From Alphaproteobacteria bacterium (GTDB lineage Bacteria; Pseudomonadota; Alphaproteobacteria; SP197): 41,708 nucleotides of DNA. Both the position numbers and the translations under genes were made by a program. Within the stretch, counting starts at the first letter, position 1. Every line of letters starts with the position of its first letter. A model generated the notes under the pieces. It was not told where the DNA came from and did not search any database. It saw only the letters and a program-made list of their open reading frames with translations. Shown here piece after piece: positions 6,497-35,981 of this stretch. Location of the stretch: assembly GCA_040905845.1 (NCBI GenBank), contig JBBDQV010000046.1, positions 8,958 through 50,665 on the forward strand, read 5' to 3'.

Positions 6497-7896
6497 TCCT
6501 GGCGCGCGTACGGCTGCGGCAGGGTGAAGGAGAACCGGGTGCCCGACGGGCCGGTCTGGTCCAGGACCAGCTCGCCGCCATGAGCGCGGACGAGCTCGCG
6601 CGCGATGGCGAGGCCGAGTCCCGTGCCGCCGGCGCGCGCGCCGCCGGCGAACGCCTCGAACAGGTGCTCGCGGGCCTTGGCCGGCAAACCCGGACCGTCG
6701 TCAAGCACGGCGACGCGCAGCCCGCCGTCGTGAGGCGCGGCGGCGACGGTCAGCCGGCCGCCGGTTTTCATGGCCTCGACCGCGTTGCGCCCGAGGTTCA
6801 TGAGGACGCGGAAGATCTGGTCGCGGTCGGCGCGCACGAAGCTGTCCTCCGGGACGGCGTTGTCGAGGACGAAGGAATCCGTCGCCCGCGGCCCGAGCGC
6901 CTCGCCCACGTCGGCGACCAGGGCGCGTAGGTCGAACCGCGTCAGCCTAAGCTCGGGCTCGTCGGCGCGGGCGAAGCGGAGCGCGTCCTCGCACAGGACG
7001 ACCGCGCGATCGATCGTGCCGATCAGCACCGTCGCCTGCCGCTTGACCTCGGGGTCACCGCTCATGGCGAGGCGGTCGGAGACGAGCGATGCGGTCGACA
7101 GGATGTTCTTGAGGTCGTGGCTGATCTTGCTGACCGCGGCGCCGATCGCGGCGAGGCGCGAGCGCTGGCGGAGCGCGCCGCGCAACGCCGTCTGCATGTC
7201 GGCGACGGCGCGCTGGCCGACGCCGACCTCGTCGGCGCGCGTGCCGGGAACCACGGTGCGCGACTGGTCCTCGGGCGCCGCGCGGAAACCGGCTAGGTCA
7301 TCGATCAGCCGGCGCAGGGGCCGCACGAACAGCCATTGCAACGCCAGGAAAACCAGGGTCGCCGCGATGAGCGAGATGATGATCGACAGCACCAGGATGC
7401 GCCACGAGTAGTCGAGCATCGCGGCGTAAAGGTCATTCTCAGCGAGGGTGACTTCGACCTCCACGTCGGCATCGGTGGGCGAGGGTGCCGAGACCAGGAT
7501 CGTCCGCCGGCCGTTGACCAGGGTGTCGGCCGCGTCGCGGATCAGGATCAGGGGACCGTCGTCGGCGAGTTCGAACCGTTCCTCGATGGGGTCCGGCTCG
7601 CCGAGTATTTGGTACGACGCGTTCCGCCTGCGCAGCGCGACCGAGGCGACCCTGGCATGCTCGAGCAGCTTAGCCGCCAGCTCCGGCGCCAGGCGGCCGC
7701 CGGGTGCCGCCTCGACCGCGAGCGAGGCCTGGTAGGCCGCGGAAATTCGCTCCTGAAGATAGACGTAGCGGAAACGCGAGATCGACGGCACGTAGATCAG
7801 GACCTCGCCGACCATGACGAAGAGAATCGTCAGGACGAGCAGCCTGGCGGACAGGCTGCGCGAGGGTGTTGGCAGGGCGAGGCGGTGGTTCTTCAT
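6493..7896 (-). CDS. Membrane HAMP-domain sensor histidine kinase (orphan in this window)
   Basis: Two TM segments, HAMP domain, H-box SHDLKNIL, N-box NLGRNA, G1 DDGPG, F-box LFEAF, G2 GGTGLGL. Confidence 0.92.
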
Positions 7897-7934
7897 GGCG
7901 CGCGAAAGGGCACGAGACCCGGCCCGGCCAGCGG

Positions 7935-7963
7935 TTGACTCGCCGCGGGGGAGGGCCTATACA
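7935..7963 (+). promoter_or_regulatory. Sigma70-type promoter of the rpmH operon
   Basis: TTGACT (7935-7940), 17-nt spacer, TATACA (7958-7963); ~55 nt upstream of rpmH. Confidence 0.6.
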
Positions 7964-8018
7964 CCGGGCCTTCGGCGCGCCCGTGGTCGCCGCCGAATCG
8001 ATAGTCCGAGCGAAGCCC

Positions 8019-8153
8019 GTGAAACGCACATACCAGCCGAGCCGCCTGATCCGCAAGCGCCGTCACGGCTTTCGCGCCCGCATCAAGACTGTCGGGGGCC
8101 GCGTCGTGCTCGCGCGTCGGCGTGCCAAGGGTCGCAAGCGTCTGTCCGCCTGA
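8019..8153 (+). CDS. rpmH: 50S ribosomal protein L34
   Basis: GTG start; [44 protein letters not shown] (44 aa). Confidence 0.97.
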
Positions 8154-8535
8154 GGACACCGAGCGTGTTCTCGCGCGCCTGCGCCAGAGGCGGGATTTTC
8201 TCCGTCTTTCAGCGAGCCGTTCCAAGGTGGTGACCCCGGCCTTCGTGCTCCAAGCGCGGGCGCAGCCCGATGCAGCGTCGTGTGAAGCGCGCGTCGGCTT
8301 CACCGCGAGCCGGCGCATCGGCGGCGCCGTCGTGCGCAATCGCGCCCGTCGCCGCCTCAAGGCGCTGGCCGCGCGGGTGCTCGCGGCACGCGCCCGGGTG
8401 GGCTGGGACTACGTGCTCATCGCCCGCGCCGAGGCCGTGACGCGGCCGTGGCCCTCGCTCGTCGCCGATCTCGAGGACGCGCTCGCGCGACTCGAGCGCG
8501 GACCGGGTCCGGCGGCGTCCGGTGGCACGCCGTGA
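8122..8535 (+). CDS. rnpA: Ribonuclease P protein component
   Basis: [31 protein letters not shown] (RNR motif), DYVLIAR; located after rpmH. Start uncertain. Confidence 0.93.
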
Positions 8536-8768
8536 GCCCCTTCGCCCACGTCCTGACCGGCCTGGTCCGGCTCTATCGCCTCGCGGTCGCACCTTACCTG
8601 GCGGGGCGCTGCCGATTCGAGCCGTCATGCTCGAGTTACGCGCTCGACGCCCTGTCGGATCACGGTGCCGCGCGTGGCGCCTGGCTGATCCTCAGGCGGC
8701 TCGGCCGTTGCCACCCGCTCGGCGGGTGGGGCTACGACCCGGTGCCGCCGCCCGGTCGCGGCGCCTGA
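8532..8768 (+). CDS. yidD: Membrane protein insertion efficiency factor YidD
   Basis: CRFEPSCSSYA...RCHPLGGWGYDPVP; GTG start overlaps the rnpA stop (GTGA). Confidence 0.93.
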   Translation: MSPFAHVLTGLVRLYRLAVAPYLAGRCRFEPSCSSYALDALSDHGAARGAWLILRRLGRCHPLGGWGYDPVPPPGRGA

Positions 8769-23762: not shown

Positions 23763-25175
23763 ATGCCCCGTCGCCCGCCCAAGGTCGGGATCGTCAGCCT
23801 CGGCTGCCCCAAGGCGCTGGTCGATACCGAGCGCATCGTCACGCACCTGCGCGCCGAGGGCTACGCCTTTTCGGCCGACTACAGGGGCGCTGACGTCGTT
23901 CTCGTCAACACCTGCGGGTTCCTCGACAGCGCGCGCCGGGAATCGCTCGATGCCATCGGCGAGGCGCTGGCCGAGAACGGCCGCGTCGTCGTCACCGGCT
24001 GCCTGGGCGCCGAGGCCGACCTGATCCGGCGGCATCATCCGGGCGTGCTCGCCGTGACCGGGCCGCACCAGTACGAAGCGGTCGTGGCGGCGATCCACGC
24101 CGTGCGCCCGCCGGCGCACGATCCGTTCATGGACCTGGTGCCGCCCGAAGGCATTAGGCTCACGCCGCGCCACTACGCCTACCTCAAGATCGCAGAGGGC
24201 TGCCACAACCGCTGCACCTTCTGCATCATCCCGAAGCTGCGCGGCGACCTGGTCAGCCGGCCGGCGGCCGAGGTCGTGCGCGAGGCCGAGCTTCTGGTCG
24301 CCGCCGGCGCCAAGGAGCTGCTCGTCGTGTCGCAGGACACCGGCGCCTACGGGCTCGACTTGCGCCATGCGTCGAGCACCTGGCGCGGGCGCGAGATCCG
24401 CGCCCATGTGGTCGACCTTGCGCGTGCGCTAGGGCGTCTTGGCGCTTGGGTCCGGCTGCACTACGTCTACCCCTATCCCCACGTCGACGACCTGATTCCG
24501 CTGATGGTCGAGGGCGCCGTGCTGCCCTATCTCGACATCCCCTTCCAGCACGCGAGCCCGCGCGTGCTCAAGGCCATGCGGCGGCCGGCCAACACCGACA
24601 AGACGCTCGCGCGGCTCGCAGGCTGGCGGGCCGCGGTGCCCGACCTCACCGTGCGCTCGACGTTCATCGTCGGGTTCCCCGGCGAGACCGACGAGGACTT
24701 CGAGACCTTGCTCGCGTGGCTCGAGACGGCCCGGATCGATCGGGTCGGCTGCTTCAAGTACGAGCCCGTCGCCGGGGCCGTCGCCAACGACCTCGCCGAG
24801 GCGGTGCCCGAGCCGGTCAAGCGGGAGCGCTACGATCGTCTGATGCAGGCGCAGCAGCGCATCAGCGCGGAGCGGCTCGCGCGCAAGGTCGGCCGCGTCG
24901 TCGACGTCATCGTCGATACGGCCGGGCCGGAGGGAGCCAAGGGCCGCACAATGGGCGACGCGCCCGAGATCGACGGCACGGTTCACCTCGCGGTCGGCGC
25001 GCGCCTGAGGCCGGGCGCCGTCGTCAGGGCGCGCATCGAGCGCGCCGACGCCTACGACCTGTGGGGCGCGCTCGCGGGCGACGCGAAATCCGCCTTCGAA
25101 GTCGCCACCAGTCAGCAGGCGGCCGCGAGGTCTCGCTCGTCGGCTCGAGGCAGGGCCGAGAGGTCGTCAAGGTAG
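23763..25175 (+). CDS. rimO: Ribosomal protein S12 methylthiotransferase RimO
   Basis: [19 protein letters not shown], radical-SAM [25 protein letters not shown] domain (DAPEIDG). ATG at 23763. Confidence 0.95.
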
Positions 25176-26518
25176 CGCTCGCGCCAAACATCGACCGTGT
25201 TGGCCTCGAGCCTCGCCAGCATCGCGCGCCAGCGCTCGCGCCGATCGACGATCGGCATGGACAACGCATCGTGCAGAGCGTTTCCGACCGCGTCGATGTC
25301 GTGAGGGTTGACGATGATGGCGCCGGTCAGCTCGCGTGACGCGCCCGCGAAGCGCGATAGGACCAATACGCCCGGGTCGGCCGGGTCCTGCGCCGCGACG
25401 TATTCCTTCGCGACCAGGTTCATGCCGTCGCGAAGAGGAGTGACGAAGCCCACCCGCGCCATGCGATAGAGCCCCGCCAACGTAGTGCGCGGCAGGCTGC
25501 GGTTGAGGTAGTGGACGGGCACCCAACCGACCTCGCCGAACTTCCCGTTGACTCGGCCCGCCGCGGCGTCGATCTCGCGCCGCAGCGCTCTGTACTGCGC
25601 GACCTCGCCGCGCGACACCGGCGCGATCTGCATGAACGTGATCTTGGCCCGATGCTCCGGGTGCGACTCGAGCAACGCACCGAACGCGGCAATCTTCTCG
25701 AACAGCCCCTTGCTGTAGTCGAGCCGGTCAACGCCGAGGATGAGCGAGCGCTCGCCCAAGCTGCCCCTTAGCCGCACGACCTCAGGGCCGCCGCGCGACT
25801 TCTTCGCCATCGCGACGAACGATGCGGTGTCGATCCCGACCGGGTGCGCCGCCACCTTGACGCGCCGCTCGAACGCGACGCAGTTGCCGCCGGGGCCCAT
25901 CACGCCGCCCAGCTCGTCGGTGATGTAGCGACGGAACGAGCGTACGTCGGCGGGCGTTTGCAGCCCGAGCAGATCGCTGGCGAACAGCCCACGCACCAGA
26001 TCGGCGTGGTGCGGCGCCATGGTCAGGATCTCCGGCGGCGGGAAGGGGGTATGCAGGAACTGCCCAATCCGGTTGCCGACGCCGATCCGCCGAAGCTCCT
26101 CGGCGAGGAAGAGAAAGTGATAGTCGTGGACCCAGACGTCGTCGTCGCTTCGGAGCAGGGGCTTGAGCGCCTGGGCCATCGCCCGGTTGACGCGTCGGTA
26201 GCCCTCATAGGTTTCGGGGCGGAACTCGGCACGCCCGAGACGGTAGTGGAACAGTGGCCACAACGTGCCGTTGGCGTAGCCGATGTAATAATCGGCATGG
26301 TCCTTCGGTGTCAGGTCGACGGTCGCGTAGCTGATCGCTCCCGACTTGACCACCCGTGGCTCGAACCGAGCGTCATCCGCAACCTCGCCGCTCCAGCCGA
26401 ACCACAGGCCGCCATGCCGCTGCAGCGCCTCGCGCAGCGCGATCGCGACTCCCCCGGCCTGAGCGGTCTGACCGCGCGGCATCGCAACGCGGTTGGAAAC
26501 GATCACCAACCGCGCCAA
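25112..26518 (-). CDS. otsA: Trehalose-6-phosphate synthase (GT20)
   Basis: [55 protein letters not shown]; TTG start at 26518 preceded by GGAGGA. Confidence 0.95.
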
Positions 26519-28290
26519 AACGCTTCCTCCCAGCTCCTGCTCACTCGCATCGCGCTGTTGATCAATCCGACCAGTATGTAGCTCTGGGGAAAGTTCCCCC
26601 ACAACTCACCGCTCTCCGGGGCGATGTCCTCGGACATGAGCCCGAGATGGTTGCGGCCGGCGAGAACGCCTTCGAAGATCGCCCGCGCCTCGCCGCGCCG
26701 GCCGATCGCCGCCAGCGCGTCAACGTACCACAGAGTGCAGACGATGAACGAGGTTTCGGGCACGCCGAAATCGTCCGCGGCAGCGTAGCGCAACAGATGA
26801 TCGCCGCGCCGGAGATGGCGCGTAACGGCATCGACCGAGGCGATGAAGCGCGGGTCGGTCGGTGCGATGAAGCCGATCTCGGGCAGCAGAAGCACACTCG
26901 CGTCGACGTGTCCGCCGTCCAGCCCATCGACGAAGGACCGCTCCGTCGGGTCCCACGCGCGCGCCGAGATGGTTTCGTGCAGGCGTGACGCCTCGGCGCG
27001 CCAGCGCGTCGCGCGTTCCGGCAGGCCGAGAACTTCCGCGATCTTGGCGAGCCGGTCGCAGGCGGCCCAGCACATGACCGCGGAGTGCGTGTGCGCGCGG
27101 CACCGCGTCCGATACTCCCAGAGCCCCGCGTCGGGCTCGAGCGCGCAGGCCACAGCCCGCTCGCCCAACGTTTCGAGGCGGGTGAACAGGGCCGCATCCC
27201 CTTGCCGCGGCAGCCGCCGATCGAAGAACATCTGGGCCGCGGCCAGAACGACGTTGCCATAGCTGTCGTTCTGAACCTGGTCCTCGGCCGCGTTCCCGAG
27301 GCGTACCGGGCCCATGCCCCGATACCCGGCCAGCGCGGCCGCCTCGCGCTCGGGCAGGCGTGCCCCCGGCACGATAGGATAGACCGGACGAAGGCGCTCG
27401 CCCGGCTCGACGTCCGCAACGTTCGTCACGAATCGGATGAAGTCCTCCATCGTCCGCGTCGCGCCGAGGCGGTTGAGCGCTTGGACGACGAAATAGGCGT
27501 CGCGCAGCCAGCAATAGCGATAGTCCCAATTGCGACCCGAACCCGGCGCCTCCGGGATCGACGTCGTCAAGGCGGCGACGATCGCTCCGGTCTCCTCGAA
27601 GCTGCACAGCTTGAGCGTGATCGCCGCGCGGATCACCGCCTCCTGCCATTCGAAGGGTACCGATAGGTAGCGCACCCACTCGCGCCAATAGTCGCGCGTC
27701 TGCTCGAGGAATTGCGCCACCGTCTCGGCGATCGGGCGGAACAGGGTCTCGTCGGGGCCGAGGATCAAGGACAACCGGCGATCGAGGACGAAGGGCCTCT
27801 CCTCGGCGATGTAGCTGACCGGGACCTCGGTCGTGAGCCGTAGCGCCTGGCGTGGCCCGACGTAGCGCAAATGATTGCTGCCAAGCGTGACGGTCGCGCG
27901 CACAGCGCCATCCTCGAACACCGGCCGCAGCCTGAGCCGCACGCGGCATGCGCCGAGCACCGGCTCGAGGACGCGCACAACCATGGGCGGCCGGAAGATT
28001 CGGTCGAACTGCTTGAACCGAGGAGAGAAGTCGGTGACGTGCATGCGGTTGCCGTGCGCGTCCTCGATCATGGTCGCGAGCACGGCCGTGTTGCGGTCGT
28101 AAGCCTGCTCGCTCCGGGCGGCGCCCTGCACGTCGACCGCAAAGAACCCCGCGTCGGCGCCGTTGACGAGCGAGCAGAACACCGGGTCGCCGTCGAGACG
28201 GGGATAGCAGGCCCACACGATCCGCGCCCACCGGTCGATGACGGCGGCGAATGCCGAATTTCCGATGACGCCGAGGTTCAAATCCTGCAT
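26503..28290 (-). CDS. Glycoside hydrolase family 15 (trehalase/glucoamylase-like)
   Basis: GAIVAALTTSIPE, RNWDYRYCWLRD, GLWEYR, SEDI...WGNFPQ; positioned between otsB and otsA. Confidence 0.92.
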   Translation of the reverse strand: MQDLNLGVIGNSAFAAVIDRWARIVWACYPRLDGDPVFCSLVNGADAGFFAVDVQGAARSEQAYDRNTAVLATMIEDAHGNRMHVTDFSPRFKQFDRIFRPPMVVRVLEPVLGACRVRLRLRPVFEDGAVRATVTLGSNHLRYVGPRQALRLTTEVPVSYIAEERPFVLDRRLSLILGPDETLFRPIAETVAQFLEQTRDYWREWVRYLSVPFEWQEAVIRAAITLKLCSFEETGAIVAALTTSIPEAPGSGRNWDYRYCWLRDAYFVVQALNRLGATRTMEDFIRFVTNVADVEPGERLRPVYPIVPGARLPEREAAALAGYRGMGPVRLGNAAEDQVQNDSYGNVVLAAAQMFFDRRLPRQGDAALFTRLETLGERAVACALEPDAGLWEYRTRCRAHTHSAVMCWAACDRLAKIAEVLGLPERATRWRAEASRLHETISARAWDPTERSFVDGLDGGHVDASVLLLPEIGFIAPTDPRFIASVDAVTRHLRRGDHLLRYAAADDFGVPETSFIVCTLWYVDALAAIGRRGEARAIFEGVLAGRNHLGLMSEDIAPESGELWGNFPQSYILVGLINSAMRVSRSWEEAFWRGW

Positions 28291-29084
28291 CGCCTGTCCT
28301 CGCGATCGAGTCTATCGACCACAGAACGCAGCCAGCGGCGCACGCCGTCGGGCCCGGGGACCCAATGTGCCGAAAGTGGCGTGCGGCGGGGCCCGACCTG
28401 GATCGCACTCCCGCCGTGATCGAGGGCCGCCTGGAAGGCGTCCTCGTCCGTTGCGTCGTCGCCGACGACGACGGGGACGCGACCCTGAAACGGCGGTTCG
28501 GCCATCAGTGCCCGCAGCGCCGCGCCCTTGTCCGCTCCGCGCGGCCGCGCGTCGACGACGCAGCGCCCGTGCAAGATTTCCAGGGCTTCGCCGGAACACT
28601 CGACCGCGCGGGTCATCGCGGCGAGGACGTCGTCGCCTCTCTCGGGCACGCGCCGGTAGTGTACGGCGATGGTGACGCCCTTGTCCTCGACAAGTATCCC
28701 GGGATACTCCATGGCTACGTGCCGCGCGGCCACGCGAACCGAATCCAGCGCCGCCGCCCCGGTCTCATTGAGCCGGGCCACGCCGCGATACTCGGCTCCG
28801 TGCTGTCCGATGATCGGCAGGGCGAGCGGCGCGAACAGGCGGCCAACGCAGTCGGTCGTGCGCCCGCTGATCAGGGCCACTGCACCTCGCAGGGACCGAT
28901 CGAGTCGGGCCAGGAGCGGGGCCAACTCCGAAGGAACGACGACGGCTTCGGGCGTGGCGGCGATATCCAGGAGGGTCCCGTCGACGTCGAGGAACAGAGC
29001 CCATCGCCGGCTCGGGCGCGGCATGAACTCGCCAGCCGAGCCGACGCAACCGTGATTGATCTCCCGCGTGCTGACTTGAACCAT
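28278..29084 (-). CDS. otsB: Trehalose-6-phosphate phosphatase (HAD)
   Basis: LFLDVDGTL, ISGR, GQHGAE, EDKG..HYR, DKG, GDDATDEDAF. Start uncertain (29084 or 29024). Confidence 0.92.
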   Translation of the reverse strand: MVQVSTREINHGCVGSAGEFMPRPSRRWALFLDVDGTLLDIAATPEAVVVPSELAPLLARLDRSLRGAVALISGRTTDCVGRLFAPLALPIIGQHGAEYRGVARLNETGAAALDSVRVAARHVAMEYPGILVEDKGVTIAVHYRRVPERGDDVLAAMTRAVECSGEALEILHGRCVVDARPRGADKGAALRALMAEPPFQGRVPVVVGDDATDEDAFQAALDHGGSAIQVGPRRTPLSAHWVPGPDGVRRWLRSVVDRLDREDRRCRI

Positions 29085-29145
29085 CGGCCATGGGCCCTAC
29101 CGGTTCGATGGATCATAACCAACCCGACGCTCCACGTCGCGGCGG

Positions 29146-30705
29146 CTACAGCCTCGTGGCATTGTCGCCGGCAAACCCTTGCGAATCGACGAACGCGAGC
29201 AACCCATCGAGTAGGCTACGGTCGGCGATCAAACGCGGCACCTTGTGCTGGCCGCCGAGCTGGCCACGGCTCGCGAGCCAGGACGCGAACGCGCCGGGCG
29301 CGACGGCGAGGACGCGCGGCGGCTCCATGCCGACGCCGCCCGCTCGGTGCGCCTTGTAGTCGTCGTTGGTGGCGGCGAGCGCGTCGTCGAGCGCTAGTGC
29401 GAAGGCGACCAGGGCGTCGCGCGTGGGCAGGCTCGGCGCGAACTCGACGACAAATCGATGGTGGCCGAGCTCGCCGGCGCGTTCGGGCACGACCGCGCCC
29501 ACGACGTAGTCGACGACCGTGAGCCCGGCCGCAACCGCCGCGACGGCGACCGAGTCCTCGACCTCCTCGGCGATCAGGTGCTCGCCGAACGCCGACAGGC
29601 TGTAGGACGTCCGGCCGCTGACGACGAGTCGCGCCGGGTCGCGTCCGACAAGCCGCACCGTGTCGCCCAGCACATACGCCCACAGGCCGGCCGAGGACGT
29701 GACGACCAGGGCGTAGTCGATGCCGACCTCGGCGTCGGCGATCCAATGGCGCGTCGGCCGGGCGGCGCCGAGGTCCGCGACCGGGACGAACTCGAAGAAC
29801 AGCCCGTTGTCCAGGATCAGCCGCATGCCCTCGCCGTCGCTCCGGTCGGCCACGGCGATGAACCCCTCGCTCGCCGCGTAGACCTCGCGCGTCTCGGCGC
29901 GGCTGCCCTCCAGCAAGCCATGGAACTGGGCGCGGTAGGGCGCGAAGTTGACGCCACCATGGACGACCAGCTCGAGGTTCGGCCAGAACACCGCGAGCCG
30001 TCGCCGTGCCTTCGGAGCTAGCGTATCCATGCGGTCGATGAGCACGAGCAACCACGACGGCACGCCCGAGACCGAGCGGACGTCCCGCGCGAGCCCGTCC
30101 CGCGCCAGGCGTTCGATCTTGCGCTCCCAATCGGCCTCGAGCGCGAGCGCGCGAGCCGGAAACTGCCAGGGCCGCGCCCACCACGGGGCCGTCGCCGCGG
30201 CGATGCCGCTGAGGTCGCCGCTCGCCACGCCCGGCGCGAGCCGGGTCAACGCCGTGCTGCCGCCGAGCAGAAGGCTCTTACCGCCGAGCACGCGGCTTCG
30301 GGGCTGGTTGGCGAGGTGGTGGATCAGGACATCGGCCGCCGCGCGGCGGTTGGCGCGGACCATGTCCCACGAGCAGGGGATGTACTTGGTGACTCCGGTC
30401 GTCGTGCCCGAGGTGACCGCGAAGAAGGGTATCCGGCCAGGCCAGGTCACGTCGCGAAGGGTGGGGAAGCGCGCCTTCCAGTACGACGTCCAGAAATCGT
30501 CATAGCGGCGCAACGGGACCGTGGTGGCGAAGTCCCTGGGCGTCGCGATCCGCTCGAAGCCGTGCTCGCGCCCGAACGCGGTCGCGCGCGCGCGGCGGAT
30601 CAGCGCCGCCAAAGTCCTCGCCTGGGCGGCCACCGGGTCCTCGCGGACCAGTCGCGCGAGCCGGCGTCGTGCGTAGACGCGGAACAAGGGCGTCACGTCG
30701 AGCAT
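29146..30705 (-). CDS. GH3 family (auxin-responsive GH3-like) acyl-acid amido synthetase
   Basis: Adenylation motifs TSGTTTGVTKYIP, YAASEG and YVLGD; C-terminal GGQHKVPRL; SGVPSW. Start ATG 30705 overlaps the acylase 3' end. Confidence 0.88.
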   Translation of the reverse strand: MLDVTPLFRVYARRRLARLVREDPVAAQARTLAALIRRARATAFGREHGFERIATPRDFATTVPLRRYDDFWTSYWKARFPTLRDVTWPGRIPFFAVTSGTTTGVTKYIPCSWDMVRANRRAAADVLIHHLANQPRSRVLGGKSLLLGGSTALTRLAPGVASGDLSGIAAATAPWWARPWQFPARALALEADWERKIERLARDGLARDVRSVSGVPSWLLVLIDRMDTLAPKARRRLAVFWPNLELVVHGGVNFAPYRAQFHGLLEGSRAETREVYAASEGFIAVADRSDGEGMRLILDNGLFFEFVPVADLGAARPTRHWIADAEVGIDYALVVTSSAGLWAYVLGDTVRLVGRDPARLVVSGRTSYSLSAFGEHLIAEEVEDSVAVAAVAAGLTVVDYVVGAVVPERAGELGHHRFVVEFAPSLPTRDALVAFALALDDALAATNDDYKAHRAGGVGMEPPRVLAVAPGAFASWLASRGQLGGQHKVPRLIADRSLLDGLLAFVDSQGFAGDNATRL

Positions 30706-32933
30706 CGCCGGAGCCCCTGGTCCGGAGGCGTCAGGACCGTGACGTGCGGGAAGCTCGTAGCGGCGGTTTCGGGCCGCAGCGGAATGCGCACCAGACGGCC
30801 GCTCCGCCACAAAGCGACCTGGTCGAGCAGGGTGTCGCTGCCGAGCCAGCCGTCCTGGCCGCCGAGCAGCACGACCTCGTTGGCGTCGGCATCCGCGAGG
30901 TCAGAAATCCAGCGGGCGTTGGCGCCGTAGTTGACCGAATGCCGGGCTTCGACCAGGCCGTGGGCCGCCTTGGCCACCGTCTCGTCGCTGCCAGGTGACG
31001 GCAGGTCCGCCATGGCCCAGCGCCGGCCGACAAGGGGCAGCCGGCTCAAGGGGTGGGCGAGGCGCAGCCGGTGCATCGCGCCCCAGGTCGGGGTGCGGGC
31101 GGCGCGGCGAGCGGCGTCGGGCAGCGCGCGCAGGATGGTCCCGGCGACGATGCCCGGCGGCGCCTCTCGCATGTCCGCGAGCAGCCGCTGGCGAAAGCGC
31201 CAGCCCGAGCGATACGCCGCCAGGCGCACTTCGTCGAGAAAGCCGCGGGCGAAGCGCGCGAGCAGGATCTCGAACGCGGGCGCGCCGGTCGATTCGACCG
31301 GGTAGCTGCCGTCCCAGGCCGCGAGCCGTGCGACGAGCGACCGCTCCGTCTTGCCGAGCCCCGCGGGATCGCCGATCGCCGCGAGCAGCGCGGACTTCAG
31401 CTCGCGCGAGCTCGCCATGAGGTCGTCGCGCTGGATGCGAGCCAGATCGGCCGCCGTCAACGCTGTCGCGACGTCCAGCAACTCCCTCAGCCGCTCGGCC
31501 CTCGTCGTCGGCGAGAAGAAGAGGCCGATCAGGATTTCGCTCCGCGGCGGCGGCTCGTTGGCGGACACGACGATACCGTCCGGCGGATCGATACTTTGCG
31601 GCAGGTCGCGGGCGGTCGCGAATGCGTCCCAATAGTCCGCTTCGCGCGCGGGCGTGGCCAGGTTCATCGATGCCTCGGGCTTTCGCCTCGGCAGGTGGGC
31701 GGCGATGGCGCGGCCGACGCGGCCCGCTGCGTCGGCATAGACGAATGTCTGGCCGGGCACGGCGAAACCTTCGAGCGCGGCGCGGAACGTAACCCAGTCC
31801 CGCGCGCGGTTGAGCGCGAGCATCGCGCCGAGCTCGTCGCTTGGCCGGTGCCCGACCCAGCGCAGCGCGAGCGTGCGCCCCGTCGGGATCGCGATCAACG
31901 GCGCATCGTTCAGCACGGGGCCGAACGCGGTTTCGCGCACGGTGATCGTCTCGGGCCGGCCCCAGCGGACACGGATGATCGCCGCGCGCGGCGCGAACGA
32001 CGAAGCAGGCTCGTCCGTCACGTCGATCAGCTCGCTCGACAGCGCGTGGAGATTGGTCCCGCCCCAGGCGATCCACCGGTTTCGGCCGATCGCGACGAAT
32101 GGTAGGGCGGGCAGCATCAGGCCGACGGCGTTATGACCCGGCGACGTCATGCCGGCGACGATCCACAGGCCGGGGACGTGCAGGCCGAGGTGGGGATCGC
32201 TCGCGAGAAACGCGTTGCCGGCCGCACGGGTGCCCGCTACGGCGAAGGCGTTGCTGCCGTGCCCGGTGGCGCCGAGCACGGCGTCGAGCGGGTCCGCGGC
32301 GCGCCCCGCGTCGCCCATCGCGCGCCACAGCGCGGCGAAATCGGGGTGCCCGGCGAGGCGTAGGCCGGCGACCATGGCGAGCCAGCTCACGTCCCAGCTC
32401 GCCAGCCGTCCGATCGCGAGGACATCGGTCGCGTGCCACGGCGCGCGATCGAGGCCGAGCAGAGGGAACTCCGGCGGCATCAGGCGCGCCTTGTCGACGA
32501 CGTGGTTGATCCCGGCGACGAAGCCGTCGAGCCAGGCCCGCGTCGCCGTTGGCATCGCGTCGAGAATGCTGGGCACGGCGCGGGCCAAGTCGAGCACGCG
32601 CAGGCTGCGGTCGAGCGGCAGCGCGATTCCGCCGACCAGCTCGGCCGTACGGCCGTGGGCGATGTGGCGCAGCACCTCCATCTGGGCCAGCCGGAGATGA
32701 GCGTGGACGACGCCGAGGCCGACCGCGAGGTCCGCGTCCCGCTCCGCCTCGAGCCACGGTATCTGGTTATCGTTCCACCGTACCGTGACCGGCGACACCA
32801 CGGGGGCGCCGCGCAGCGGCAGGTTCGCGAGCCGCTCGGCCAGCGACACCCGTCGGGGCGGGGGATGGCGCAGCAGCGACCAGGAGAGGCGCGCCGCGAG
32901 CGCGGCGAGCATGGCGGTACGCCGCAGGTTCAC
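30693..32933 (-). CDS. Penicillin acylase / Ntn amidohydrolase (S45) family protein
   Basis: Alpha-subunit IPWLEA...GLGVVHAHLRLAQME; beta-subunit N-terminal nucleophile in G|SNAFAV...ASDPHL; GRNRWIAWGGTN, VSANE, WGAMH, GGQDG. Confidence 0.88.
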   Translation of the reverse strand: MNLRRTAMLAALAARLSWSLLRHPPPRRVSLAERLANLPLRGAPVVSPVTVRWNDNQIPWLEAERDADLAVGLGVVHAHLRLAQMEVLRHIAHGRTAELVGGIALPLDRSLRVLDLARAVPSILDAMPTATRAWLDGFVAGINHVVDKARLMPPEFPLLGLDRAPWHATDVLAIGRLASWDVSWLAMVAGLRLAGHPDFAALWRAMGDAGRAADPLDAVLGATGHGSNAFAVAGTRAAGNAFLASDPHLGLHVPGLWIVAGMTSPGHNAVGLMLPALPFVAIGRNRWIAWGGTNLHALSSELIDVTDEPASSFAPRAAIIRVRWGRPETITVRETAFGPVLNDAPLIAIPTGRTLALRWVGHRPSDELGAMLALNRARDWVTFRAALEGFAVPGQTFVYADAAGRVGRAIAAHLPRRKPEASMNLATPAREADYWDAFATARDLPQSIDPPDGIVVSANEPPPRSEILIGLFFSPTTRAERLRELLDVATALTAADLARIQRDDLMASSRELKSALLAAIGDPAGLGKTERSLVARLAAWDGSYPVESTGAPAFEILLARFARGFLDEVRLAAYRSGWRFRQRLLADMREAPPGIVAGTILRALPDAARRAARTPTWGAMHRLRLAHPLSRLPLVGRRWAMADLPSPGSDETVAKAAHGLVEARHSVNYGANARWISDLADADANEVVLLGGQDGWLGSDTLLDQVALWRSGRLVRIPLRPETAATSFPHVTVLTPPDQGLRRCST

Positions 32934-32953
32934 GACGACCTCCCGGAAGACGA

Positions 32954-32984
32954 AGGGGGCGGGATGCCCGGCACCCCGCCCCCT
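32954..32984 (-). terminator. GC-rich hairpin downstream of the substrate-binding protein gene
   Basis: AGGGGGCGGG / CCCGCCCCCT forms a perfect 10-bp stem; only a weak pyrimidine tail on the minus strand. Confidence 0.5.
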
Positions 32985-33008
32985 GGAGCGTTCGAAGCGA
33001 CGGCTCGG

Positions 33009-34157
33009 TCAGAGACCGGCCTTGACCTCCTCGTACATCGCCTGGAGCGTCGGCTCGTTGCGGATCGTCGCCTGGAAGATGCCGCCCGCGATGTAGGCGT
33101 CGAGCTTGTCCGGCGTGGTCAAGCCACGCATCGCCAGATCAGCCTCGGAGAAACCTTCGAACCCGCCTAGGTTCGAGTGCCCCATGCCGAAGTTCTGGAT
33201 CCAGTTGTGCCCGGCATCCTTGCTGAGGTACGCGTTGAGCAGATCATAGGCGCGCGCTTCCATCTCCGGGGTGACCCACGTCATCAGGCACAGCCCGCAC
33301 GTCCAGGTCATCGCGCCCTCCTTGGGCTGCATGAAGGTCGCCGGGATACCCTGGTTCGAGAGGTTGAGGATCGTGTCGTTCCATGAATCCGCCGCGATCA
33401 ACTCGCCGCTCGCCAGCGCCTGCTGCCAGCCCGTGTTGTCGTTGGAGTAGAAGCGCAGCAGCGGGCGCTGCTGGACCATCAACTCCTTGGTTTTGGCGAC
33501 CTCGGCCTCGGTCATGTCGAAGGGGTTCTTCGCGCCGGAATAGATCGCGGCGACCATGACGCCGTCGATCAGGCTGTCGATCATGGAGAGCCGCCCGGAG
33601 TACTTCTCGTCCCACAGGATGCCCCAGGTGTGGTTCTCGACCCCGACGTATTCGGGCGCCAGGTCGTGGCGGAAGGTCACCGAGGTCAAGCCCCACCAGG
33701 CGGGAACCCACAGGCGCTTCCCGTCGATCACGGTGTCGGGAACGTTGTAGAGCGCCGGGATGATCTCGCCCCAGTGGCTCAGCCGGCCGATGTCGATCTC
33801 CTTAAGAAACCCCAGGTCGTTCCATTTGACGACCTTGTAGGAGCACGGCATCGACATGTCGGGATGGAAGCCGGCGCGCATCTTGGCCTCGGCTTCCTCT
33901 TCGTCGCCCCAGTTGGAGTAGTTCGGCGCCTCGCCGTACTTGGTGAGGTACTCCTGATTGTATTCCGGCGCCTCGTAGCCGGCCCAGGTGAACAGCGTCG
34001 GGTGATCGTCGCTGTCGGCGCGGGCGCCGATGCGTCCCGTGGGCAGGATGACCGTCGCAAGGCCGACCGAGGCCATGGCGCGCTTGAAGTCGCGCCGCGT
34101 CACGCGGCCGTACTTGATCTCGTCGATGAAGCGTTCGATGTCGCGTTTGGTTTCCAT
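33009..34157 (-). CDS. ABC substrate-binding protein, PotD/PotF (polyamine-type) family, Tat-exported
   Basis: Twin-arginine TRRDFK plus hydrophobic stretch; FTWAGY, WGILWDEKYSGR, PKEGAMTW; SD GGGAGG. Confidence 0.85.
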   Translation of the reverse strand: METKRDIERFIDEIKYGRVTRRDFKRAMASVGLATVILPTGRIGARADSDDHPTLFTWAGYEAPEYNQEYLTKYGEAPNYSNWGDEEEAEAKMRAGFHPDMSMPCSYKVVKWNDLGFLKEIDIGRLSHWGEIIPALYNVPDTVIDGKRLWVPAWWGLTSVTFRHDLAPEYVGVENHTWGILWDEKYSGRLSMIDSLIDGVMVAAIYSGAKNPFDMTEAEVAKTKELMVQQRPLLRFYSNDNTGWQQALASGELIAADSWNDTILNLSNQGIPATFMQPKEGAMTWTCGLCLMTWVTPEMEARAYDLLNAYLSKDAGHNWIQNFGMGHSNLGGFEGFSEADLAMRGLTTPDKLDAYIAGGIFQATIRNEPTLQAMYEEVKAGL

Positions 34158-34322
34158 GCGCGCGCCTCCCTCTTTCTTGGGTTGAATTCGGCCTGAACCG
34201 GCCGATCAGCCGTGCATCCTGGCCCAACCGGCCCGCCACCGCAAGAATCGGGTGGCCGGCTCCCTGGCCTCGGCCCCGCCGGCCCGGCTAGAGTACGGCC
34301 AAGGCGAACGAAGGGGCCCGGC

Positions 34323-35981
34323 ATGGCGGCTGCAACCACTTACGATTACGTGATCGTCGGCGCGGGCTCGGCGGGGTGCGTGCTGGCGAGCCGCTTGAGC
34401 GCGGATACCACGATCCGCGTCCTCGTGCTCGAGGCCGGACCCGAGGACCGCGGCTGGAAGATCCACATGCCCGCCGCGCTCGCCGAGCCGCTCAAGGACA
34501 CCAAGTACAACTGGTGGTACGAGACCGAGCCCCAGATGCACCTCGACGGACGCCGGGTCTACTGGCCGCGCGGGCGCGTGCTGGGCGGCTCGTCGTCGAT
34601 CAACGGCATGGCCTACGTGCGCGGCCACGCGCTCGATTACCAGCGCTGGGCCGAGGATGGCGCGCGCGGCTGGTCCTACGCCGAGGTGCTGCCCTATTTC
34701 CGCCGCGCCCAGGCGCACGCGTCGGGTGCGGACGCCTACCGGGGCGGCGAAGGTCCGCTCCGGGTGCGCACCGGCACCATGGCCAACCCGCTCTATGAAG
34801 CGTGGCTCGAGGCCGGGCGTCAGGCGGGCTACCCGATTACCGGGGACATGAACGGTTATCAGCAGGAGGGGCTTGCCCGCATGGACATGACCGTGCATGT
34901 GGGCCGGCGCCAGAGCGCCGCGGTCGCCTACCTGCGCCCGGCCATGCAACGCCCGAACCTGACCGTGGTGACCGAGGCGATGACGTTGCGCGTGCTCGTC
35001 GAGGGCCACCGCGCGGTCGGCGTCGAGTACGCCCGCCGGGGCGAGACGGTCACGGCGCGTGCCGAGCGCGAGGTCATCGTCGCCAGCGGCGCCATCAACG
35101 GTCCGCAGCTCCTCATGCTCTCAGGCGTCGGCGACGCCGACGAGCTGCGCCCGCTCGGCGTCAACGTGGCCCACCATCTGCCGGGGGTCGGCAAGAACCT
35201 CCAGGACCACCTGGAATGTTACGTCCAATACGCCTGCACCCAGCCGGTCACGCTCTATCCCGCGCTCAAGCCGCTCGGGCGGCTGCGCGTCGGCATCGAG
35301 TGGCTGCTGTTCAACACCGGGCTCGGCGCCACCAACCACTTCGAGGCCGGCGGCTTCATCCGCAGCCGCGCGGGCGTCGAGCACCCCGACCTGCAGTACC
35401 ATTTCTTCCCGATGGCGATCACGTACTACGGCACCGCGCCGGCCTCGGGCCATGGCTTCCAGGCGCACATCGGGCCGATGCGCTCGCCGTCGCGAGGCTT
35501 CCTCAGGCTGCGCTCGACCGATCCGCGCGAGCACCCCGTGATCGAGCCGAACTACATGTCGCACGACGCGGACTGGCAGGAGTTCCGCGCCGGCGTGCAC
35601 CTGACCCGCGAGCTCTTCGCCCAGAAGGCGTTCGATGCGTTCCGGGGCGAGGAGCTCCAGCCCGGCGCCGCGGCCACGTCCGACGCCGCCATCGACGGCT
35701 TTCTCAGGAAGCACGTCGAGAGCGCCTATCACCCGTGCGGCACGTGCAAGATGGGCACCGACCCGATGGCGGTGGTCGACGCCGAGTGCCGGGTCCACGG
35801 GCTCGATGGCTTGCGGGTGGTCGACGCCTCGATCATGCCCTCGATCCCGTCGGGCAACCTCAACGCGCCGACCATCATGATCGGCGAGAAGGCGGCCGAC
35901 ATGATCCTCGGTACGACGCCCCCGCCGCCCTCGAACGCGCCCTACTGGGTCAACCCGGACTGGCGCACGCAGCAGCGGTGA
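34323..35981 (+). CDS. betA: Choline dehydrogenase (GMC oxidoreductase)
   Basis: YDYVIVGAGSAG, PRGRVLGGSSSINGM, GKNLQDHLE, NHFEAGGFIRS, ESAYHPCGTCKMG, GNLNAPTIM. Confidence 0.85.
   Translation: MAAATTYDYVIVGAGSAGCVLASRLSADTTIRVLVLEAGPEDRGWKIHMPAALAEPLKDTKYNWWYETEPQMHLDGRRVYWPRGRVLGGSSSINGMAYVRGHALDYQRWAEDGARGWSYAEVLPYFRRAQAHASGADAYRGGEGPLRVRTGTMANPLYEAWLEAGRQAGYPITGDMNGYQQEGLARMDMTVHVGRRQSAAVAYLRPAMQRPNLTVVTEAMTLRVLVEGHRAVGVEYARRGETVTARAEREVIVASGAINGPQLLMLSGVGDADELRPLGVNVAHHLPGVGKNLQDHLECYVQYACTQPVTLYPALKPLGRLRVGIEWLLFNTGLGATNHFEAGGFIRSRAGVEHPDLQYHFFPMAITYYGTAPASGHGFQAHIGPMRSPSRGFLRLRSTDPREHPVIEPNYMSHDADWQEFRAGVHLTRELFAQKAFDAFRGEELQPGAAATSDAAIDGFLRKHVESAYHPCGTCKMGTDPMAVVDAECRVHGLDGLRVVDASIMPSIPSGNLNAPTIMIGEKAADMILGTTPPPPSNAPYWVNPDWRTQQR

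Follow-up and report, generated by a model that had tools for sequence, protein, structure and literature searches.

A conserved pairing of an S45-family acylase with an OlsH-like GH3 ligase in Proteobacteria, a candidate module for aminolipid turnover

The window analysed here (the whole 41,708-nucleotide stretch of an alphaproteobacterial contig, about 70% GC) carries, on its minus strand, a gene for an N-terminal nucleophile (Ntn) hydrolase of the S45, or penicillin-amidase, family that runs directly into a gene for a GH3-type acyl-acid amido synthetase, the first predicted to break and the second predicted to form an amide bond. The adjacency of the two genes recurs far beyond chance, and the comparison of genomes supports a conserved functional unit made up of acylase and ligase. 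The overlap of 13 nucleotides (nt) that a first-pass annotation of this DNA had reported is found at the positions given below, and the catalytic motifs it had named in both genes, G|SNAF in the acylase and three motifs in the GH3 protein, are present and conserved among orthologues. The two genes and their junction are as follows.

30693..32933, minus strand: S45 (penicillin-amidase family) Ntn-hydrolase precursor gene, 746 amino acids, from GTG at 32933 to TGA at 30693-30695
29146..30705, minus strand: OlsH-like GH3 acyl-acid amido synthetase gene, 519 amino acids, from ATG at 30705 to TAG at 29146-29148
30693..30705, minus strand: 13-nt overlap of the acylase stop and the GH3 start, with the GH3 ATG (30705-30703) inside the acylase gene

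The GH3 start common to the aligned orthologues is the ATG at 30705, not an upstream GTG at 30810, and the ligase would be translationally coupled to the acylase gene through the 13-nt overlap. The ligase has no signal sequence.

The reading we prefer, and to which we give somewhat less than an even chance, is that the pair is a make-inside, break-outside module for N-acyl-amino-acid lipids that works across the inner membrane. The first gene would encode an S45 precursor that is exported (lipid-anchored in most orthologues) and cleaves itself between Gly226 and Ser227; Ser227, freed at the start of the beta chain, would then act as the nucleophile in the hydrolysis of an amide. The second, translationally coupled gene would supply a cytoplasmic ligase whose product is N-acyl-ornithine or a molecule of the lyso-ornithine-lipid type. 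Outside, in the periplasm or on the membrane surface, the acylase would hydrolyse amides of this very type, the freed fatty acid would return inside for re-ligation, and the pair would set the level, the head group or the acyl chain of an aminolipid. What we infer is the identity of both substrates, the action of the two enzymes on one compound, the direction in which material flows and where the window's acylase resides. The more general proposal of the first-pass annotation, that an amide-forming and an amide-cleaving enzyme act on one class of acyl amides, is still the best reading of the pair.

Conservation and joint inheritance of the pair

We compared 41 related genomes, the window's own included, taking E ≤ 1e-150 as the threshold for a GH3 orthologue and E ≤ 1e-160 for an acylase orthologue. 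All 41 are concordant for the two orthologues, in presence as in absence. An intact GH3 gene is found in 17 genomes, and in each of these 17 the acylase gene immediately precedes it on its strand (42–61% identity for the acylase orthologues of these carriers); 23 have neither orthologue, only paralogues of about 33% identity, and in one genome (G014) both genes survive as remnants, apparently through a single deletion. The remnant locus (L045, G014:C1:2305820-2319146) retains acylase residues of about 50–188 and GH3 residues of about 187–506, with two stops; the two remnants abut, as though one deletion took out the gene junction.

Within the window's order, GH3 occurs in 18 of 33 genomes, and a sample of 400 genomes across the phylum yields two carriers only, both with the acylase directly upstream. 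The first-pass annotation had suggested a survey of PF03321 and PF01804 neighbourhoods together with a check of co-phylogeny, and the survey bears the association out: the two are adjacent in every intact carrier, both among the 41 relatives (17/17) and phylum-wide (2/2). Among the best 80 GH3 loci listed from public genome records, 25 are of the close type and 55 are distant. The acylase lies upstream of GH3 in 16 of the 25 close loci and not in the other 9 (one of which has no upstream DNA and two of which have less than 2.6 kb of it), and it adjoins GH3 in none of the 55 distant loci listed.

The spacer between the two genes ranges from −13 to +56 nt in 24 loci, with an overlap in seven, in five of these as ATGA; in 9 loci the script could assign no start. 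No other neighbour of the pair is conserved across about 30 lineages, and in an all-against-all clustering of the flanking open reading frames (ORFs) of 43 loci no cluster extends beyond three lineages, the one that does reach three being made up of generic ABC ATPases. The lack of a dedicated transporter would fit substrates that are soluble in the membrane.

The acylase tree (34 rows) and the GH3 tree share their main groups and are largely congruent, and the co-phylogeny check came out in favour of joint inheritance. Even an acylase that is unlinked from the GH3 gene of its own genome (G442) falls in the matching clade; the placements differ for two loci, L030 and L130 (the latter in G444). 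The distance matrices of the two proteins correlate with r = 0.87 over 33 genomes and with r = 0.63 over 24 representatives, values that none of 2000 permutations reached in either case, and shared descent alone could produce much of this correlation. The GH3 carriers are labelled Alphaproteobacteria, Acidithiobacillus and, in one metagenome-assembled genome (MAG), Bordetella. This spread over several classes, taken with the frequency of two in 400 across the phylum, makes it likely that the pair was transferred as a unit or, if not, lost many times.

Could the two be unrelated enzymes that travel together by happenstance? Either gene can stand alone or unlinked, and the evidence is one of sequence and genomic context. 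We nonetheless hold a chance association to be very improbable, against which speak the concordance in all 41 relatives, the fixed order on a common strand at so narrow a range of spacings, the retention of the pair while all other neighbours change, and the congruence of the trees.

The acylase of one GH3-linked locus, in a MAG labelled Acidithiobacillus (L058:1546-3762), is interrupted in frame by a stop codon, some 89 codons into the match, and is either a pseudogene or a sequence error.

The GH3 ligase and its kinship to OlsH

The ligase matches the GH3 domains PF03321, PF23571 and PF23572 with 98.2, 46.1 and 64.8 bits, respectively, against a Pfam cut-off of 23.6. Its three nucleotide-binding motifs, identified by motif reading and orthologue alignment, are invariant or nearly so in an alignment with 10 orthologues.

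30376..30414, minus strand: GH3 nucleotide-binding motif 1, TSGTTTGVTKYIP, residues 98–110
29863..29880, minus strand: GH3 motif 2, YAASEG, residues 276–281
29662..29676, minus strand: GH3 motif 3, YVLGD, residues 344–348

In motif 1, the residues T98, S99, G100, T101, T102, G104, I109 and P110 are invariant. The sole NCBIfam match of the ligase is NF052613, the model for OlsH (lyso-ornithine lipid synthetase), which it matches with 592.2 bits. OlsH is a planctomycete ligase that joins C14–C18 fatty acids to ornithine with ATP and Mg2+, and its motif-1 serine S115 is essential (PMC12493201); S99 of the window's ligase is presumably the equivalent residue. The scores of homologues against the same model, whose curated equivalog cut-off is 620 bits, are as follows.

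Five planctomycete homologues: 689–912 bits
Acylase-linked proteobacterial homologues: 521–606 bits
Unlinked proteobacterial and Bdellovibrionota homologues: 496–610 bits
Two Bacteroidota homologues: 394–409 bits

The GH3 tree, obtained by a quick search with SH-aLRT as the sole measure of support, has 58 proteins: 42 rows of the proteobacterial type and 16 rows from the 55 distant loci, namely six with at least 40% identity and ten Bacteroidota-type outgroup rows. Two duplicates (L049 and L063) and a frameshifted protein (L065) were omitted, and Isosphaeraceae relatives stand in for S. acidiphila OlsH itself, which is outside the tree. The 42 proteobacterial rows form one clade (support 99), whose sister is that of planctomycete OlsH (five rows, support 99), and the Bacteroidota proteins fall outside both; the window's ligase lies in the separate sister clade and not inside the OlsH clade. 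It is 45–49% identical to proteins of the planctomycete OlsH clade (L072-L076 and L092), and plant GH3 structures match it at E 5e-14 or weaker. By sequence, then, the ligase is a close cousin of OlsH and, by the NCBI threshold, not a member of the OlsH family. This kinship leads us to infer that the ligase takes a fatty acid for its acyl substrate and a basic amino acid for its amine. The analogy with a hormone or signal drawn in the first-pass annotation is weaker than the lipid one, with the GH3 clade sister to OlsH and the acylase far from the PvdQ-type acylases of N-acyl-homoserine lactones (AHLs).

A lipid context for the GH3 clade is also provided by a fatty-acid desaturase gene (PF00487) that lies downstream, on the same strand, of an acylase-less GH3 gene in two MAGs labelled Bdellovibrionota. 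In one of them (L050) the desaturase gene (6631-7593) is directly next to GH3, and in the other (L048) it lies at 7876-8766, beyond two intervening ORFs, one of which encodes a FUR-family regulator. We note that a class-III aminotransferase gene (PF00202, the ornithine/diamine aminotransferase family) adjoins GH3 in one genus, g3 (L040:9816-11204, L039 and L041), and also adjoins the second GH3 copy of genome G027 (L046:8471-9781), that is, in two lineages in total.

In the planctomycete pathway, OlsH is followed by OlsI, an alpha/beta-hydrolase that adds the second acyl chain, and OlsH-type enzymes require free fatty acids, not acyl groups bound to acyl carrier protein (ACP) (PMC12493201). 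OlsI was considered as a hidden partner of the ligase and rejected: its model (NF052614) has no match above the cut-off in any of the 41 genomes (best 73 bits against 385) or beside the pair, and an alpha/beta hydrolase that adjoins the pair in L030 reaches 65.8 bits. The possibility that the pair replaces OlsB or OlsBA was likewise discarded. All 24 same-family relatives, every GH3 carrier among them included, have the OlsB-type domain PF13444; the window's own genome, at 81% completeness, shows no match to it. On the gene content of these genomes, the pair would not be the OlsHI pathway, nor would it stand in for OlsBA.

GH3 chemistry, in which the adenylation of a carboxylate is followed by the attack of an amine, would also suit a different step in the same lipid family. 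According to a recent review, the transfer of taurine to ornithine lipid depends on ATP, and the gene responsible has yet to be identified (PMC12971839). A ligase that adds, for example, taurine to the ornithine carboxyl, giving cerilipin, with the acylase reversing the step, would meet OlsB already in place in all same-family relatives, and some of the carriers are labelled Acetobacteraceae. We nevertheless find such a head-group ligase scarcely credible, because the identity to the planctomycete OlsH clade and the OlsH scores so near the cut-off favour a fatty acid, and no taurine-related gene is linked to the pair.

The acylase, its location and the surroundings of the pair

The acylase matches PF01804 over nearly the full length of the model (positions 1–672 of 675, E 9e-139). 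An AlphaFold2 (AF2) model built on 26 orthologues has a predicted local distance difference test score (pLDDT) of 87.7 and a predicted template-modelling score (pTM) of 0.89, and finds 86 matches in the PDB at E ≤ 0.001. The best solved relative is D-succinylase 7ea4 (template-modelling score, TM, 0.80; profile E 1.6e-78), and the class III glutaryl-7-aminocephalosporanic acid (7-ACA) acylase is matched at a profile E of 6.9e-54. The PvdQ chains rank after D-succinylase and after the cephalosporin and penicillin G acylases. The first-pass annotation had set the acylase among the S45 enzymes, for which it named PGA, PvdQ and the AHL acylases; the family assignment holds, but PvdQ is far, with a profile match of E 2e-17 and 31.1 bits for the PvdQ model NF051460 against a cut-off of 950. 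Judged by its relatives, the acylase has no support for an assignment as an AHL acylase, and these relatives give no direct clue to its substrate.

The features of the precursor that bear on its processing and export are as follows.

32253..32255, minus strand: codon of Ser227, predicted to be the nucleophile at the N-terminus of the beta subunit (G226|S227-N228) and placed by alignment to solved beta chains
32256..32306, minus strand: spacer or linker ahead of the self-cleavage site, residues 210–226, with low AF2 confidence at residues 210–224
32871..32933, minus strand: N-terminal segment, residues 1–21, MNLRRTAMLAALAARLSWSLL, a degenerate export or anchor signal without a lipobox Cys, at the alignment position of the orthologues' lipoprotein signals

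In alignments with solved structures, residue 227 falls on the first residue of the beta chains 4hst_B, 35sz_C and 1fm2_B. Within the motif G226|S227-N-A-F, S227 and N228 are invariant among the 26 orthologues and G226 is at least 90% conserved. The segments of the AF2 model with pLDDT below 50 are residues 210–224, directly ahead of the cleavage site, and the C-terminal tail, residues 740–746. Given the alignment of Ser227 with the first residue of solved beta chains and the conservation of the cleavage motif, the acylase looks like a self-processing Ntn hydrolase with a predicted cleavage at G226|S227. We note that the window's genome has a second PF01804 paralogue, 32% identical to this one (G000:C176:6494-8686), and that similar paralogues, unlinked to any GH3 gene, are found in most relatives.

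The N-terminus had been described at first pass as basic and amphipathic, without a clear cleavable signal, and the acylase had been suggested to share the compartment of the ligase. The description stands for the window's copy, whose N-terminus (MNLRRTAMLAALAARLSWSLLRHPPPRR) has no lipobox and whose residues 3–21 are predicted to form a helix (pLDDT 65–74), but not for the family. A script finds a strict lipoprotein signal in 21 of 34 acylase orthologues, and a lipobox-like Cys is seen by eye in six more, about 27 of 34 altogether; the N-terminal segment is hydrophobic and lacks the Cys in seven of the 34, the window's acylase and most of its subclade among them. From the lipoprotein signals in most orthologues, the acylase family is predicted to be exported and mostly lipid-anchored, and the window's acylase may have a signal of the Sec or Tat type or an anchor that stays uncleaved. 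Against such signals in the acylase family, an ATP-dependent ligase that has none makes a shared compartment unlikely.

An exported acylase might instead serve supply, by stripping fatty acids from foreign or envelope acyl amides (AHLs, lipopeptides or the aminolipids of other cells), with the ligase trapping the incoming fatty acid as N-acyl-ornithine and a host enzyme of the OlsA type perhaps converting this to ornithine lipid. The two enzymes would then work in sequence on different amides, which is the acyl-swap variant that the first-pass annotation had included among its proposals. Such a salvage role would agree with the need of OlsH-type enzymes for free fatty acids rather than acyl-ACP (PMC12493201), with an acylase gene placed upstream and a protein predicted to be exported in most orthologues, and with OlsB-type genes, and so probably the remainder of the ornithine-lipid pathway, in all 24 same-family relatives. 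A self-contained module with a patchy distribution (two in 400 phylum-wide, in several classes) is what an accessory scavenging trait would be expected to be, and a lone acylase in one genome, described below, indicates that the enzyme can be useful without GH3. We still regard salvage as rather unlikely: the acylase orthologue is nearly confined to GH3 carriers (17/17 in the relatives and 2/3 in the phylum sample), which is unexpected for a general scavenger, the enzyme is distant from the PvdQ-type acylases of AHLs and lipopeptides, and the flanking ORFs include no gene for uptake, such as FadL or FadD.

The PvdQ and AHL acylases act in the periplasm, where they take off a fatty acyl chain put on in the cytoplasm, as PvdQ does in the maturation of pyoverdine. 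More generally, S45 enzymes, penicillin acylase being an example, work through a covalent acyl-enzyme, from which the acyl group can be transferred. By the same logic, the ligase could acylate a cytoplasmic amine, the lipidated product could cross the membrane, and the Ntn enzyme could then either remove the acyl group, freeing a mature product in the manner of PvdQ, or pass it from Ser227 to an acceptor in the envelope. The topology of the pair, with acyl-adenylate chemistry inside and an S45 enzyme outside, agrees with this scheme, as do the tight coupling of the genes and the capacity of an S45 acyl-enzyme for acyl transfer. No transporter, non-ribosomal peptide synthetase (NRPS) or acceptor-related gene is conserved nearby, however, several genomes have GH3 without the acylase, and the sequence gives no sign of transferase over hydrolase activity, so that we hold the scheme to be improbable. 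A particular form of it, in which the N-acyl-amino-acid lipid made by GH3 serves as the acyl donor, through acyl-Ser227, for the acylation or re-head-grouping of an envelope molecule in the ATP-free periplasm, is in our view a long shot. Were a milder version of this relay true, the acylase would be the first known case of an enzyme that takes the head group off an ornithine-type aminolipid, enabling swaps of head group or chain.

The sequence around the pair contains three further local signals.

32939..32944, minus strand: Shine-Dalgarno-like GGGAGG, 5 nt ahead of the GTG at 32933, read from the sequence
32954..32984, minus strand: GC-rich 14-bp hairpin in the spacer that separates the acylase start from the binding-protein gene upstream of it
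29125..29139, minus strand: weak terminator-like hairpin directly 3' of the GH3 stop

The GGGAGG box supports the GTG at 32933 as the acylase start. The 75-nt spacer upstream of the acylase folds at −40.3 kcal/mol (z −1.9), and the 14-bp hairpin within it is only about 10 nt ahead of the ribosome-binding site, which leaves little space for a promoter and may point to read-through or attenuation from the binding-protein gene. A scan of positions 28800-34400 for sigma-70 promoters found no site where 0.2 were expected, which is uninformative at 70% GC. Terminator-like sites in the region are no more frequent than in shuffled sequences, and the hairpin behind GH3 is a hint only.

Neither flank of the pair qualifies as part of the system. 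Only the same-genus genome has the upstream gene for a PotD-like binding protein (33009-34157) and betA in common with the window, and not even that genome shares the trehalose genes. The latter genes occupy 25112-29084 on the minus strand (otsA, a GH15 trehalase-like gene and otsB), between GH3 and a gene for a MiaB-like radical-SAM protein. In the same-genus genome (G001, L029) the radical-SAM gene directly abuts GH3, which marks the trehalose genes as an insertion or deletion difference.

Weighing of the module and comparison with known systems

Several observations weigh against the make-inside, break-outside reading. The first concern the linkage itself. Of five genomes with a non-adjacent GH3 gene that were searched for the acylase orthologue, two (G442 and G444) have it elsewhere in the genome and three (G441, G443 and G445, of unknown completeness) yielded none. 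The complete genome G092 has the opposite arrangement, an acylase orthologue of 43% identity with no GH3 gene in the genome and no ligase nearby, and the link between acylase and GH3 is not obligatory. The lone acylase of G092 (L131:5959-8169) matches PF01804 at E 4e-131 and has no lipobox Cys; its neighbours are a flavin reductase gene, an acyl-CoA-dehydrogenase-like gene and a SnoaL-like gene. A second GH3 copy without an acylase is found in G027.

Other points concern the substrates and the economy of the cycle. The score of the ligase falls below the OlsH equivalog cut-off, and its amine, or even its acid, may therefore differ from that of OlsH. The closest solved acylases, D-succinylase and glutaryl-7-ACA acylase, take short acidic acyl groups, and PvdQ, an enzyme that does act on fatty acyl groups, is far more distant (E 2e-17 against 1.6e-78). 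The OlsB-type gene in all 24 same-family relatives means that the pair is not needed for basic ornithine-lipid synthesis. A pure loop of hydrolysis and re-synthesis wastes ATP, unless it serves remodelling or control.

One locus (G030, L030:5866-9828) brings the compartments into question: a single stop-free reading frame of 1320 codons, headed by a clear lipobox (LLAGC), runs through both acylase and GH3 there. A TAG is found in a different frame 37 nt ahead of the GH3 ATG, so that a single indel could explain the joined frame, which is either a real fusion or an assembly indel; a real fusion would sit badly with separate compartments. When longer proteins were searched with the GH3 query, no acylase-GH3 fusion came up at E ≤ 1e-20, which is weak evidence.

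The nearest characterised relative of the window's ligase is OlsH, with which it has in common the ATP-dependent GH3-type ligase architecture and the conserved nucleotide-binding motifs. Unlike the planctomycete system, in which control proteins score 689–912 bits, the pair has a ligase that scores below the family cut-off, has no OlsI in the 41 genomes and no OlsG adjacent to it in the window, and is found in hosts that also carry OlsB-type genes. The ligase's partner is an S45 amidase of a family predicted to be exported, and the OlsH paper makes no mention of an acylase or amidase (PMC12493201).

The acylase itself has its closest solved counterparts in the D-succinylase of Cupriavidus sp. 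P4-10-C (7ea4/7eby) and the class III glutaryl-7-ACA acylase (4hst/4hsr), which have the same Gly|Ser-Asn cleavage and nucleophile site, but the identity is about 25% and the substrates of these enzymes are small acidic acyl amides. The PvdQ and AHL acylases have the same S45 fold as the window's acylase but are distant in sequence, and the pair has no siderophore or NRPS context.

At the level of the pair, the nearest parallels are of logic. In plants, conjugation by GH3 enzymes is opposed by deconjugation by amidohydrolases of the ILR1/IAR3 type. The bacterial pair resembles this system in setting an amido synthetase against an amide hydrolase and in its GH3 domains and motifs; it differs in that the hydrolase is an Ntn enzyme of the S45 family and not an M20 peptidase, in that the genes form a putative operon, and in that the likely acid is a fatty acid rather than a hormone. 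In E. coli, the adjacent genes of LplT-Aas serve lysophospholipid repair with the help of a flippase. There, as proposed here, a lipid is altered where it faces the periplasm and then re-acylated inside the cell at the expense of ATP, an analogy by logic only, since the protein families are unrelated and LplT-Aas includes a flippase whereas the acylase-GH3 pair has none.

In a full-text literature search (subscription journals not covered), we found no published description of a GH3 ligase paired with an S45 acylase, and a 2026 review of the field (PMC12971839) makes no mention of aminolipid breakdown, of an acylase or of an amidase. OlsH-type ligases were recognised as lipid enzymes in 2025, and their roles beyond the planctomycetes are open (PMC12493201; PMC12971839); N-acyl-ornithines and lyso-ornithine lipids are of interest as biosurfactants (PMC12971839). 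The module is small, two genes with no accessory genes. In the proteobacterial sister clade of OlsH, an amidase predicted to be exported appears to have taken the place of the biosynthetic partner OlsI, and the hosts already have genes of the OlsB type; this combination points to the turnover, remodelling or salvage of aminolipids or N-acyl-amino acids.

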